Shown piece by piece: positions 10,656-64,000 of a stretch of DNA of 64,000 nt (position 1 is the stretch's first letter; every line of letters starts with the position of its first letter). The notes below the pieces were generated by a model. The model had not been told where the DNA came from, made no database searches, and saw nothing but the letters and a program-made list of their open reading frames with translations. The position numbers and the translations under genes were made by a program. Origin of the DNA: a virus (lineage: Duplodnaviria > Caudoviricetes); the IMG/VR virus record IMGVR_UViG_3300042013_000067, positions 128,001 through 192,000 of that record; one strand, given 5' to 3'.

Positions 10656-11069
10656 CTATCCCTGACACCCGGTCAGATGCGTGCGGTGAGCATCATCAAT
10701 GACTTTACGTTCACGTTTAATCAACATGCGCAGTTCATTGATGTAGCCAGCAATCGCTGTCTCCAGTTCCGTGCCACCGAGGGGCGTGAAGTCAGGTTTT
10801 ACCGGCAACGTCTGACGTGTGGGGATAACAAATGGAATACACCCTGTTCGTATTACGGGCCGTTCCTTCGGAGTTTCCCTAGGGGTAGATGGACGTGACG
10901 CCACCTTGGCTCGCTGCGGTGCTTCCTTCTCCACAGTTTTGGTTTTTACAGTACGGTAAGTTTTAACTTCGGTGGTGTGATGCGTGACATCAGACTGTCG
11001 TGCATCGATCACCACACACCCCGGCAATACACCGAGTAGGAGGCCGACGGCCAGCTTAGCAAGGCGCAT
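10656..11069 (-). CDS. Lipoprotein, candidate o-spanin
   Basis: Basic N-terminus, hydrophobic core and lipobox LPG|C at Cys18; Pro-rich middle region; extra cysteines. Confidence 0.6.
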   Translation of the reverse strand: MRLAKLAVGLLLGVLPGCVVIDARQSDVTHHTTEVKTYRTVKTKTVEKEAPQRAKVASRPSTPRETPKERPVIRTGCIPFVIPTRQTLPVKPDFTPLGGTELETAIAGYINELRMLIKRERKVIDDAHRTHLTGCQG

Positions 11070-61610: not shown

Positions 61611-63797
61611 TTACCAGCCCATGAAGCTGGCGGATTGTACTGGTTCGGTGGGTAGATCACCCTTCATACCGATGTCGAATTTCTTGAAGTGTGAGGATAT
61701 GGCCATGTTAAAGGCCAACACATCGTCGTACTCACCTTGTTGGGCGATCTCCACTTCAAAGTCTTCTACAGACTCAGTGACTGCGAACGGGGACTTGATC
61801 CCCATTATAGCCTCCACTTGCTCCATCGACCAAGCCAAGATCTCCGAAGAACGCGTGGAGATGTTAGGCTTGTCTCCCGTGTCTAAGAACGCTTGGTATA
61901 CAGTGGTCTGGGTGTCAGCACCAATCCGGTGGATCCGGCTGATCGCCTGTTCTTGGATGTAAGCACGGAACGGGGCGTTGATCATGATCATGGTATCAGC
62001 CATAACCAGAGGCACTGCCGTAGACAGCGAGTTGTAGGTCGCGATCAATGGGTTGAGTTTCTCATCCTTCTCGAACTTACCCACAATAGAAGCGAGTTCA
62101 TTGTTGGTCTTACCGTAAACCACGAGAGGACTCATGCCAGCGCTGGTGCATTGTGCCGCGGCAGCGGTCAGTGCTTCAACGAAGCTGGTGAATACCAGAG
62201 TCTTCTTATCGGTGGTGTCGGCAATAGTCTTGAAGTCAAGGTACTTAACCATCTCGACGTGACATTCAATGCGCTTACGACCCAGCACACGACCCAAGCA
62301 CTCACCCTGAATCTTCAGTTTGGTGTACTTGATGATCGACTTGACGTCACGGAAGTCTTTGATCATTTCCTTAGGCAGCGACGGTTCGAAGTAGCGCTTC
62401 TCGTACATGTTGGTGTACGCGATCTCCTCGCCAATGTAACGCGGGTCAGCGGTGGCGATTACCGTCTTCAGGATTTGACGATACTTCTTGTATTCCATCT
62501 TCTGCGCAGCAGCACGCAGTGTGTCTTCATGGAGTACGAGGCAACGTTCCCAAATACGTTCATCATCCTTACGGTGCTTCTTGTAGAACTCGACGCGTTC
62601 CTGAATGAACCCTTCCATCACCTTACGGATAGCATCCAGTGTGTAGAGGTCGCCCGTAGGCATCTTGATCGGTAACCGCTTCATGATCGGCTTGTCGAGC
62701 TTCAGGGCTGACTTCTCGATCTTGTGGGAAATCATCCCCATGCGGTTCTTCAGGATATCAAGACCTTTGTTACCGTCCTTACCGAAGATCTTCTTGAAAC
62801 GTTCTTGTACGCTGTCAGTGAACAACGGATCGAGTACGGTAAGCAGAGGGATGAGCTCAGCACCCATGGCCTTCACGGGCGTACCCGAGGCAGGGATAAT
62901 GTTCTTGCACTGTGTCTTCTTACACAGGTCAATAAACAGCTGGGTCCGTTGGGACTTGATCTCGTTGAGGTTGTGGGATTCATCCAGTACGATGATCATG
63001 TTCTGGCCACTGATGGCATGGCTGTTAACCATGGACATTAGCTTTTCCAGGTACTCGTAATGGCAGATCACGATCCGTTCTTTGTTGTACGGCTTACCGG
63101 ACTCAGAAGTCCAGTAGGTCTGTTCTTTCTTGTACTCTTCCACCACCGTCTTTTGCCAAACGCGTTGTACGGCGTTCTTCGGACAGATGATCAGAATCAA
63201 GTCAGCATCGATACCTTCAGCGACATACAGCGACGCCATGGTCTTACCAGAACCCGCCGCACCGGCTAGCAGATAACCATTGAGACCGTATTGATCGACC
63301 TTAAGGTTATAGTTCTGGAGGAAACCGATTTGGTGTTCCAGTGGTTGTTTGTTGAACCGCTTAAAGTTCTCAAACTTCAAACGACCGACCTGATCGTCGT
63401 TTTCAATGGTGTTCTTCAACCACGTCCGTTCGTACATCATCATGCGGATATTGTTGAGTACCCGCACTGAAACCGCAGCACGTGTCTGAACGAGTTGCTC
63501 TAACATGTAGATAATGTCGAGAGCGAAGAACTTGTCAAAGCTGAAACCATTACGGCCAAACGTATTAAACATGTGCATGGCGATCTTGGATGTCTTCCAC
63601 ACCCGAGCCATGTCACGCTGCATGACATCGGCAGGGATGCCTTCGACCACGATCTCAGTAGCGGTTTCTTTTACGTTGATAGCACCGAAGGCGCGGCGGA
63701 ATCCAGCGAACATTTCGACACTGGGTTGTTCGATTAGGAATGCCGGGTTGAAGTGTAGCTCCCGACCTAGCTGTGGTTCTGAATACGCTGCGTACAT
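61611..63797 (-). CDS. SF2 (SNF2/DEAD-like) helicase (phiKZ gp203-like)
   Basis: Q motif QPLEHQ, AGAAGSGKT, ICPK, VLDESH, ASGTP, LVFTSF, QAISRIHRIG. Confidence 0.92.
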   Translation of the reverse strand: MYAAYSEPQLGRELHFNPAFLIEQPSVEMFAGFRRAFGAINVKETATEIVVEGIPADVMQRDMARVWKTSKIAMHMFNTFGRNGFSFDKFFALDIIYMLEQLVQTRAAVSVRVLNNIRMMMYERTWLKNTIENDDQVGRLKFENFKRFNKQPLEHQIGFLQNYNLKVDQYGLNGYLLAGAAGSGKTMASLYVAEGIDADLILIICPKNAVQRVWQKTVVEEYKKEQTYWTSESGKPYNKERIVICHYEYLEKLMSMVNSHAISGQNMIIVLDESHNLNEIKSQRTQLFIDLCKKTQCKNIIPASGTPVKAMGAELIPLLTVLDPLFTDSVQERFKKIFGKDGNKGLDILKNRMGMISHKIEKSALKLDKPIMKRLPIKMPTGDLYTLDAIRKVMEGFIQERVEFYKKHRKDDERIWERCLVLHEDTLRAAAQKMEYKKYRQILKTVIATADPRYIGEEIAYTNMYEKRYFEPSLPKEMIKDFRDVKSIIKYTKLKIQGECLGRVLGRKRIECHVEMVKYLDFKTIADTTDKKTLVFTSFVEALTAAAAQCTSAGMSPLVVYGKTNNELASIVGKFEKDEKLNPLIATYNSLSTAVPLVMADTMIMINAPFRAYIQEQAISRIHRIGADTQTTVYQAFLDTGDKPNISTRSSEILAWSMEQVEAIMGIKSPFAVTESVEDFEVEIAQQGEYDDVLAFNMAISSHFKKFDIGMKGDLPTEPVQSASFMGW

Positions 63798-63861
63798 GGC
63801 GCGCCCTATGTTCTAATGTAGTTAGACTATAAAATTAGCTTCTTTTGCCGTGCATGTATTC

Positions 63862-64000
63862 TATGTACGAGGTTACGACAGTAGCCAGGCAGGAGGTGAT
63901 CCAGATCTCGCGGTTGTTTCCGACCCCCGAGCCGCTAATGACAACGCTGCGAAGCCATCGTCGGGCGGCTCATAGGTTCCTTGTACGCCCCAATAGGGTC
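63862..64000 (+). ncRNA. Candidate ncRNA carrying a 14-nt complement to the 16S rRNA 3' end (truncated by the window edge)
   Basis: AGGAGGTGATCCAG at 63891-63904; hairpin GAGCCGC/GCGGCTC; begins at a TATG late-promoter-like site. Confidence 0.45.

Follow-up and report, generated by a model that had tools for sequence, protein, structure and literature searches.

Does the end of this stretch of phage DNA encode an RNA that acts on the host ribosome? The window, which is the whole 64,000-nucleotide (nt) stretch that was analyzed, comprises bases 128,001-192,000 of the 283,622-bp viral record IMGVR_UViG_3300042013_000067, a record with direct terminal repeats; the nearest isolate to its phage is Pseudomonas phage Noxifer. 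A sequence-only reading of positions 63862-64000 had proposed a non-coding RNA with a 14-nt perfect complement to the 3' end of 16S rRNA and no start codon, a candidate decoy for 30S subunits. Judged by comparison with its relatives, this locus is a stand-alone gene for a small structured non-coding RNA of the phiKZ-type (nucleus-forming, own-RNA-polymerase) Pseudomonas jumbo phages, and the RNA family is uncatalogued, widely conserved in jumbo phages and strongly covarying. We are also inclined to believe that the RNA pairs with the 16S tail and thereby docks on small ribosomal subunits without a translation start. The locus, L001 in our numbering, continues beyond the window (window position = L001 position + 62,199); by its predicted ends, the RNA gene lies on the plus strand, is about 163 nt in total and overruns the window end by 27 nt.

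The complement to the 16S tail and the family that carries it

The target of the proposed pairing was checked directly. The Pseudomonas 16S 3' end ...GCGGCTGGATCACCTCCTTA (string GGTAGCCGTAGGGGAACCTGCGGCTGGATCACCTCCTTA) was present in many Pseudomonas genomes, and in P. putida the Rfam small-subunit rRNA model stopped exactly at the final A of that string, with ATCGACG coming next. When both strands of the whole 283,622-bp genome were compared with the complement of this tail, AGGAGGTGATCCAG was the longest match, the runners-up reaching 11 nt, and the Shine-Dalgarno (SD) sites before start codons in the same genome matched over no more than 9-10 nt (e.g., TAAGGAGGT-ttgt-ATG and AGGAGGTGAT-gt-ATG). 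The 14-nt match in this phage exceeds chance, as had been argued. The reported lack of an ATG or GTG 5-10 nt downstream also held: none of ATG, GTG, or TTG occurs 5-10 nt past GGAGG in this copy, where the sole GTG overlaps the motif itself, and no SD-spaced start codon follows the block in any family member.

Twenty-eight distinct homologues were gathered in five ways, namely helicase synteny, pattern scans, BLAST, a scan limited to stem P1 (described below), and model searches. They are held by Noxifer, pPa_SNUABM_DT01, phiKZ, 201phi2-1, PhiPA3, Phabio, and metagenomic jumbo phages. Helicase synteny yielded copies in three further metagenomic jumbo-phage contigs, two pattern scans yielded further copies on contigs of 250-278 kb, and BLAST located the copy in the isolate pPa_SNUABM_DT01. 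A scan with the two P1 strands only, which did not demand the motif, returned 13 loci (three of them new), and the block was found in all 13. Moreover, the covariance model R1, built from Noxifer/DT01-type sequences only, matched phiKZ (NC_004629) at 212,852-212,970 (plus strand) and 201phi2-1 (NC_010821) at 229,016-229,142 (plus strand) over the full model length, with E-values of about 1e-5. Model R2 matched two phages outside its training set, PhiPA3 (NC_028999; 54.6 bits) and Phabio (37.3 bits). R1 gave no match in Lu11, and weak, doubtful matches only in OBP and EL. Among the Enterobacterales chimalliviruses, neither model R2 nor a motif search gave a convincing homologue in Eowyn, Rebecca, MJ359, or Haymo; the single exact match to GGGGGTGATCCA in Rebecca has coding-like surroundings. 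A search by motif alone gave no match in RP31 (Ralstonia), Yong MS32 (Vibrio), or PS2 (Aeromonas).

The block was kept in all 28 distinct homologues, as GG(A/G)GGUGAUCCA, and in this sense the 16S-tail complement proved to be the conserved core that the sequence-only reading had taken it for. With the verified Pseudomonas 16S end, every one of the 28 members can form at least 14 contiguous pairs, and most can form 16-18. Pairing begins at the 3'-terminal A1542 in 17 of the first 23 members, and in no member does complementarity extend beyond the mature 16S end into the pre-rRNA trailer. The variant UGAGGGGGUGAUCCAGC gives 17 pairs, two of them G-U; UAAGGGGGUGAUCCAGCC gives 18, AGGAGGUGAUCCAGCC gives 16, the phiKZ block UAAGGGGGUGAUCCAGUC gives 18, and the Phabio block GAGGAGGUGAUCCA gives 14, the lowest count, which it shares with the copy in the window. 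Because the differences among members are A/G opposite U, the pairing is preserved, and the block is invariant whereas the surrounding stems vary. The predicted energy of the duplex with the 16S tail was -28 kcal/mol for the copy in the window and -30 to -35 kcal/mol for its relatives, compared with -9 to -16 kcal/mol for real SD sites. Within the phage's own genome, no complementary target for the block was longer than 11 nt or above chance.

Fold and coding potential

As modeled, stems P1, P2, and P3/P4 form a three-way junction that would hold out a strand of about 20-35 nt carrying the 14-18 nt complement (16S nt 1525/1527 to 1540/1542). Folding was compared with that of shuffled sequence, giving z = -3.1 for the plus strand and z = +0.26 for the minus strand. 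When RNAalifold was applied to a plain MAFFT alignment, P1-P4 were recovered, with 12 of 24 pairs compensatory. When 24 distinct sequences were aligned by the structure-fitted model, standard pairs filled 96% of the pair cells and 17 of 21 pairs had changed on both sides; the covariation score was 0.57, versus 0.03-0.07 when partners were slid by 1-3 columns, and none of 500 shuffles reached 0.57. Helix 1 (P1) was 100% paired, with both sides changed in four of its five pairs (GUACGA/UUGUAC became GUGCAA/UUGCAC in relatives). In P3 of Noxifer, a C-to-T change was accompanied by G-to-A, and compensation was seen by eye among members (GAGCCGC/GCGGCUC to GAGCUGC/GCAGCUC; GGAACG/CGUUCC versus GAAACG/CGUUUC). 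The P2 loop reads UUCG, UCCG, or CUCG in relatives, and the P4 loop is a GNRA tetraloop in most members (GCGA, GAGA, GUGA, GGGA).

The positions that the sequence-only reading gave for AGGAGGTGATCCAG, TATG, GAGCCGC, GCGGCTC, and GCT-GCGA-AGC were all found in the sequence. Its two structural calls hold as well: both the helix GAGCCGC/GCGGCTC and the hairpin with the GCGA cap are real, and they covary. Two shorter segments that it had matched to the 16S 3' minor domain were rejected as 16S matches. The first, GTTACGAC, is the 5' arm and loop of P2, with compensated changes (GGUUUC/GAAACC, GGCUAC/GUGGCC); the second, TAGGTTCCTTGTACG, proposed to match the helix 45 loop, is junction plus the covarying 3' strand of P1.

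A small protein was also considered. In the genome under study, a plus-strand frame from TTG 63845 or ATG 63863 is open for 65 codons, and a minus-strand frame of 41 codons is open at the window edge. When the sequence was read past 64000, the plus-strand frame was found to stop at the window equivalent of 64042, giving 65 amino acids. Comparison with Noxifer revealed 1-nt and 7-nt indels across the region, which break the frame, and each of the six frames through the block was closed within 4-9 codons in some member (26 sequences); the frame from 63854/63863, which was to count against an RNA if it encoded a conserved protein, is closed in some relatives. Substitutions track base pairing and not codon positions. 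Given these frame-breaking indels, the lack of a conserved frame, and the lack of an SD-spaced start, the small-protein, leader-peptide, and ordinary ribosome-binding-site readings were rejected, and we regard a small protein here as scarcely credible. The fold covaries and no frame is conserved, which supports the earlier call of a non-coding RNA gene on the plus strand. No Rfam family fits this RNA, the sole response being a sub-threshold one from CC2171.

Transcription unit and genomic setting

The features of the locus are collected in the table below.

Table. Features of the RNA locus in window coordinates, all on the plus strand; transcript ends are predicted
Feature	Position	Strand	Remarks
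Upstream element AAAATTAGC	63831-63839	+	resembles the phiKZ middle-promoter motif AAanTTACc; kept in own subclade; putative function
TATG late-type promoter core	63862-63865	+	predicted +1 is G63865, first base of P1
P1 5' strand GUACGA	63865-63870	+	pairs with 63981-63986
P2 hairpin GGUUAC-GACA-GUAGCC	63871-63886	+	helix 2; 98% paired, 4/5 pairs compensatory
Anti-16S block AGGAGGUGAUCCAG (DNA AGGAGGTGATCCAG)	63891-63904	+	P2-P3 junction; complementary to 16S nt 1527-1540 (E. coli numbering)
Small extra hairpin GGUUG-UUUC-CGACC	63912-63925	+	Noxifer-like subclade only; weakly supported
P3 5' strand GAGCCGC	63929-63935	+	preceding CC pairs with GG 63975-63976; helix 4; 6/6 pairs compensatory
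P4 hairpin GCU-GCGA-AGC	63946-63955	+	inside P3; helix 5; 100% paired, 3/3 pairs compensatory
P3 3' strand GCGGCUC	63965-63971	+	partner of GAGCCGC
P1 3' strand UUGUAC	63981-63986	+	closes stem P1
Terminator GGGUCCUCUCC-GAAA-GGGGAGGGCC, then UUAUUCC	63992-64027 (window equivalent; L001 1793-1828)	+	window end cuts after 64000

For the RNA, the predicted start is the G of TATG, and the phage non-virion RNA polymerase would transcribe it. In phiKZ, this polymerase starts at the G of the TATG found in late promoters, and the mark of middle promoters is AAanTTACc, about 24 nt before the start (PMC4666361). The start proposed in the sequence-only reading is supported by motif invariance: all 24 Noxifer/DT01-type members have TATGT(A/G)C, and the phiKZ subgroup has ATATAG at this place. 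PhiPA3 and Phabio have equivalents of the upstream element (AAAACTTAC or AATAACTTAC) about 22 nt upstream of the start. The genome itself codes for fragments of the beta and beta' subunits of a multisubunit RNA polymerase. Expression of the RNA would fall in mid or late infection. The sequence CATGTATTCTATGT, identical to that around the predicted start, occurs once more in the genome, at position 10673 (minus strand) in an intergenic region, and may be a second promoter of the same class.

Reading past position 64000 also disclosed a terminator, which places the predicted 3' end of the RNA at the window equivalent of 64027. It belongs to a conserved class of phage terminators (GC hairpin plus UUUAUGCC). 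The combination of a GC hairpin and (U)UUAUGCCG recurs dozens of times in the genome, mostly in intergenic regions, and TTATNCC follows a hairpin at 60 sites, mostly intergenic, among which is the terminator of the RNA. A near-identical cassette, GGCCCCTCCC-loop-GGGAGGGGC-TTTATGCCGT, is repeated, for example at genome positions 54698, 107178, 132996, 186740, and 262296. This recurrent cassette appears to be the conserved terminator motif of the phage RNA polymerase; published descriptions give a conserved motif for 61 phiKZ terminators and a counterpart in 201phi2-1. According to one passage on 201phi2-1, which does not state the strand, the termination site 229,201 is among the four strongest terminators validated in vivo (PMC11512511). 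That site is the second C of UUAUGCC, 7 nt past the hairpin of the 201phi2-1 homologue, and coincides with its predicted 3' end.

Between the terminator and the downstream gene lies CTATATTAC (L001 1846-1855, window equivalent 64045-64054), which occurs only three times in the genome, always in intergenic regions (the other two at positions 218527 and 240512). It is also found 3' of the phiKZ homologue, with CTATATCAC in relatives, and we take it to be a likeness of the phiKZ early-promoter core.

The RNA locus, present as a single copy in its genome, lies in a gap of about 320 bp, flanked on one side by the gene for an SNF2/DEAD helicase on the minus strand (61611-63797) and on the other by a plus-strand gene. 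The sequence-only reading had placed it beside a gp203-like helicase; this neighborhood recurs in relatives, and in phiKZ itself the copy occupies the gap that separates the minus-strand helicase gene PHIKZ203 from PHIKZ204. What flanks the RNA varies from one subclade to another: upstream the genes are not the same, and downstream the two protein families show no relationship (hhalign probability 0.1%). With neighbors that differ in this way, it is the RNA that is conserved as a unit. No protein partner conserved beside the RNA was found when the neighboring genes of the subclades were compared. In the DT01-type subclade (L010, L011, L013, L014, L016-L018, L026, L029, L031), a conserved small gene begins 27-205 nt past the RNA terminator, in a form of 123-137 amino acids (MRNxGIxxIxADS...) or a short form of 51-53 amino acids, both with an acidic tail EEKDDPYEDLGYRR; it is unrelated to the gene 3' of the RNA in the subclade of the phage studied here.

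Similar blocks were noted in other viral sequences. In the E. coli phage Goslar (MK327938), a region at about 87,152-87,431 on the minus strand (L221) has a 7-bp hairpin, GUAGGAGGUGAUCCUGAUCUCC, and a terminator plus UUUAUGCCG. Of GUAGGAGGUGAUCCUGAUCUCC, 12 nt are complementary to the E. coli 16S tail, and the segment can also pair with itself (GGAGGU/AUCUCC). This element is a possible diverged homologue, which neither covariance model detects with confidence. The 17-mer AAGGAGGTGATCCAGCC, the classic universal 16S reverse-primer sequence, had 44 viral-contig matches, mostly to one coding family or to rRNA fragments. The family is found on small contigs (L161-L163, L165-L167, L169, L174, L178-L180, L185-L187, L190, L191, L193, L194, L196-L198, L200-L202). 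Since the 17-mer here encodes part of K-G-G-D-P-A (...Y-K-G-G-D-P-A...) with synonymous variation around it, it is best seen as a chance match amplified by an abundant phage group, and the 44 matches gave no support to a general phenomenon of primer-like 17-mers in viral contigs. In L164, L175, and L181, a recurrent, non-coding-looking AGACCAAG-AAGGAGGTGATCCAACC with the enterobacterial-type CCAACC ending was observed, and in L175 the arms GACCAAG...CTTGGTC flank the block and would place it in a loop. This context may be an independent case of a 16S-tail complement.

Proposed action, rival explanations, and known systems

In nucleus-forming jumbo phages, phage mRNAs are favored on ribosomes. 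The mechanism that we propose for the RNA is as follows. The non-virion RNA polymerase of the phage would start at the G of TATG and stop at the standard terminator, releasing an RNA of about 163 nt whose 5' end would be locked in P1; with both ends protected, it would be a stable small RNA. The junction would display a strand complementary to the free 3' tail, which is the only part of 16S rRNA that is single-stranded over a long stretch, and the duplex formed with this anti-SD tail on free 30S subunits would be much more stable than one with any mRNA. Lacking a start codon to which the subunit could pass, the RNA would stay parked on the platform and go untranslated. As the likeliest effect, some of the 30S subunits would have their anti-SD tail occupied or blocked in the middle or late phase of infection, and the candidate consequences are a re-programming of translation, a decoy, the holding of subunits in reserve, or a shielding of the 16S 3' end. 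The folded body might be a docking or protein-binding module, perhaps bringing a bound protein to the platform. More tentatively, we suggest as one possibility that Pseudomonas chimalliviruses, phiKZ included, use a dedicated structured RNA to clamp the anti-SD tail. It would be a modulator of the ribosome made of RNA, comparable in function to hibernation or anti-association factors or else shielding the rRNA end, and through it 30S subunits would be reprogrammed, parked, or protected in the middle or late phase of infection.

A number of observations weigh against this proposal. In thermodynamic folding the block was not clearly open, with a mean unpaired probability of 0.44 versus 0.35 elsewhere, and the predicted cost of opening it was 6-11 kcal/mol. 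In the folding models, a weak local hairpin (GGAGGU/AUCUC) or pairing with a conserved CCC run could mask it, and pairing past nt 1529 in a mature subunit would have to open the base of helix 45. Part of the invariance of the block must be discounted because some members were found by the two pattern scans, which demanded the motif; the members found independently of it, by helicase synteny, by the P1-strand-only pattern, or as covariance-model matches outside the training set, also carry the block. The model alignment was fitted to the structure and hence is biased towards it; the slid controls, the MAFFT-based result, and the changes seen by eye agree on the fold. As for co-variation with the host, Goslar, a doubtful homologue and the sole candidate with an enterobacterial host, reads CCUG and not the expected CCAA. 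In public sequencing runs, only short low-depth contigs of a relative were recovered, coding and non-coding regions alike, from libraries that are labeled metatranscriptomic and are probably DNA. Finally, most of the phage's genes use ordinary SD sites, so that a plain global sponge would hurt the phage too, which makes this version unattractive. By a crude gene model, which with its starts chosen for SD is weak evidence only, 260 of the 306 predicted genes had an SD-like match of at least 4 nt. TATG stood at the start codons of 44 of the 306, which is about the base-composition expectation and thus no enrichment. The idea of leaderless mRNAs, in which the anti-SD would be blocked or removed to favor late mRNAs started at TATG, was rejected on the grounds that SD sites are common and TATG starts are not enriched.

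Three other explanations of the RNA have to be set against docking on 30S subunits; one of them also assumes 16S pairing, so that our estimates overlap and are not a strict partition. The RNA could be the 5' part of a co-oriented downstream mRNA, a leader or stabilizer of the STAB-SD type in which a bound 30S subunit or the structure itself blocks 5'-end-dependent decay, or in which the block serves as a standby site, with the short RNA as a by-product of premature termination. The downstream gene is indeed co-oriented in every context seen, with 20-90 nt between the terminator and its start in PhiPA3 and in the DT01-type subclade. STAB-SD elements bind 30S subunits without a translation start (PMC4113751), and transcriptome reports on phiKZ and 201phi2-1 describe many short RNAs derived from 5' untranslated regions (UTRs) by early termination (PMC10914365; PMC11512511). 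However, the terminator is of the strongest class: in vivo, the 201phi2-1 copy terminated better than the strong lambda T0 control, and the set to which it belonged had been selected for a termination efficiency of >99% (PMC11512511). In the subclade of the phage studied here and in phiKZ, a separate early-type promoter, CTATATTAC, intervenes between terminator and gene, and the downstream genes are unrelated between subclades. Furthermore, a short SD would suffice for a stabilizer, leaving 14-18 nt of complement and four covarying helices superfluous, and ribosomes would have no co-transcriptional access if transcription takes place in the phage nucleus. We consider a cis-acting leader unlikely, though deserving of attention.

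It is also unlikely that the RNA acts in trans or binds a protein in a manner that leaves its SD likeness incidental or a form of mRNA mimicry, the block being read by a phage or host protein or by another RNA; we would place this a step below the leader. A specific partner, protein or RNA, is suggested by the elaborate conserved fold and its GNRA-capped hairpin; folding does not predict a fully open block, and Goslar departs from its host 16S at nt 1527-1528. On the other hand, the phage genome lacks a complementary target longer than 11 nt, and it is hard to account otherwise for runs of up to 18 consecutive matched positions that stop precisely at the mature 16S end in several distinct lineages. 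A sponge for RsmA/CsrA of the RsmY/RsmZ type was rejected, as there is a single candidate site and several loop GGA motifs are needed; binding of this type is unlikely because most members read GGGGG without GGA. The remaining explanation holds that the RNA pairs with the 16S tail in order to alter or protect the rRNA, the duplex being cut by a double-strand RNase, with removal of the anti-SD, or the 3' end being shielded from 3' exonucleases or from an anti-phage rRNA-cleaving toxin. Recognition of the mature end fits this explanation, because pairing starts at the 3'-terminal nucleotide in most members and stops before the precursor trailer, and a duplex of 16-18 bp approaches the length that double-strand RNases accept. 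Removal of the anti-SD would be self-harming, because the phage genes depend on SD and leaderless TATG starts are not enriched, and no nuclease partner is linked to the locus; we hold action on the rRNA end to be improbable.

Docking on the 30S subunit is thus the explanation that we favor, and an important role for the RNA is argued for by its retention in five or more genera, between which protein identity has fallen to 30-50%. We know of no RNA effector of jumbo-phage translation takeover; one ribosome-binding phage protein is known. This protein, PHIKZ014, is described as binding to the ribosomes of its host (Gerovac et al. 2024, cited in PMC12197685). Reportedly, it acts at the large subunit in early infection. 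It resembles the present case in that phiKZ-type phages act directly on host ribosomes, and differs in being a protein and not an RNA. If binding to the 16S tail is confirmed, it would represent a new viral mode of acting on ribosomes, and the RNA would be a natural module for very tight 30S capture. If it proves false, the RNA family, uncatalogued and strongly covarying, would still merit an entry in Rfam. Given that transcriptome, gradient, and genetic-knockdown methods exist for phiKZ, 201phi2-1, and PhiPA3, the hypothesis can be tested at once.

The small RNAs of phiKZ and 201phi2-1 described by Grad-seq and ONT-cappable-seq have the same style of unit, with a phage promoter, a conserved terminator within 250 nt, and then a co-oriented gene (PMC8545117, PMC10914365, PMC11512511). 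The main texts of these surveys name neither this locus nor a 16S complement, the examples named there being 3'UTR_PHIKZ298, 5'UTR_gp40, and sRNA005 upstream of gp182/gp277. A 30S-bound RNA would have escaped the Grad-seq screen, because that screen sought phage RNAs that do not co-sediment with ribosomes. A Val-tRNA fragment of Haloferax (PMC11009984) is likewise a non-coding RNA that acts on the small subunit and not via mRNA pairing, and it blocks mRNA binding; it is a processed tRNA piece at the archaeal decoding site, whereas the phage RNA has a dedicated gene and a proposed duplex with the anti-SD tail.

By analogy, the closest mechanistic precedent would be the STAB-SD of the Bacillus thuringiensis cry3A mRNA (Agaisse and Lereclus 1996; PMC4113751). 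Both are SD-like, can pair with the 16S 3' end, and lack a start codon, and in STAB-SD the 30S subunit is thought to be held without initiation, which for the phage RNA is a proposal. STAB-SD is short and unstructured, lies in an mRNA leader in Gram-positive bacteria, and blocks RNase J1 (PMC4113751), whereas the phage RNA has a complement of 14-18 nt within a covarying four-helix RNA, its own promoter, a strong terminator, and a Gram-negative host. With regard to the leader position, a co-oriented gene always follows the phage RNA, yet a strong terminator, and in some clades a promoter as well, intervenes. The other comparison is with CC2171 (Rfam RF01867) of Caulobacter and other Alphaproteobacteria, the consensus of which holds GAAAGGAGGUGAUCCAG, followed by a structured domain and a terminator. 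The locus studied here scored 20.8 bits (E = 0.024) against RF01867, below the gathering threshold of 75 bits, and five other family members gave no match at E <= 1. In the cmscan alignment, the consensus GAAAGGAGGUGAUCCAG falls on the phage block, and the 16S-tail complement GGAGGUGAUCCAG is common to both. In CC2171 the block lies in a 5' single-stranded leader and not in a closed junction, and the RNA is bacterial and not from a phage; the resemblance would at best be analogy, not kinship. The function of CC2171 is unknown, and its expression was confirmed in Methylorubrum (bioRxiv 10.1101/2022.01.24.477521). Should binding of the phage RNA to the 16S tail be borne out, this would be the first known case of a phage RNA with rRNA as its direct target, and a like mode of action would be suggested for CC2171 of the Alphaproteobacteria.

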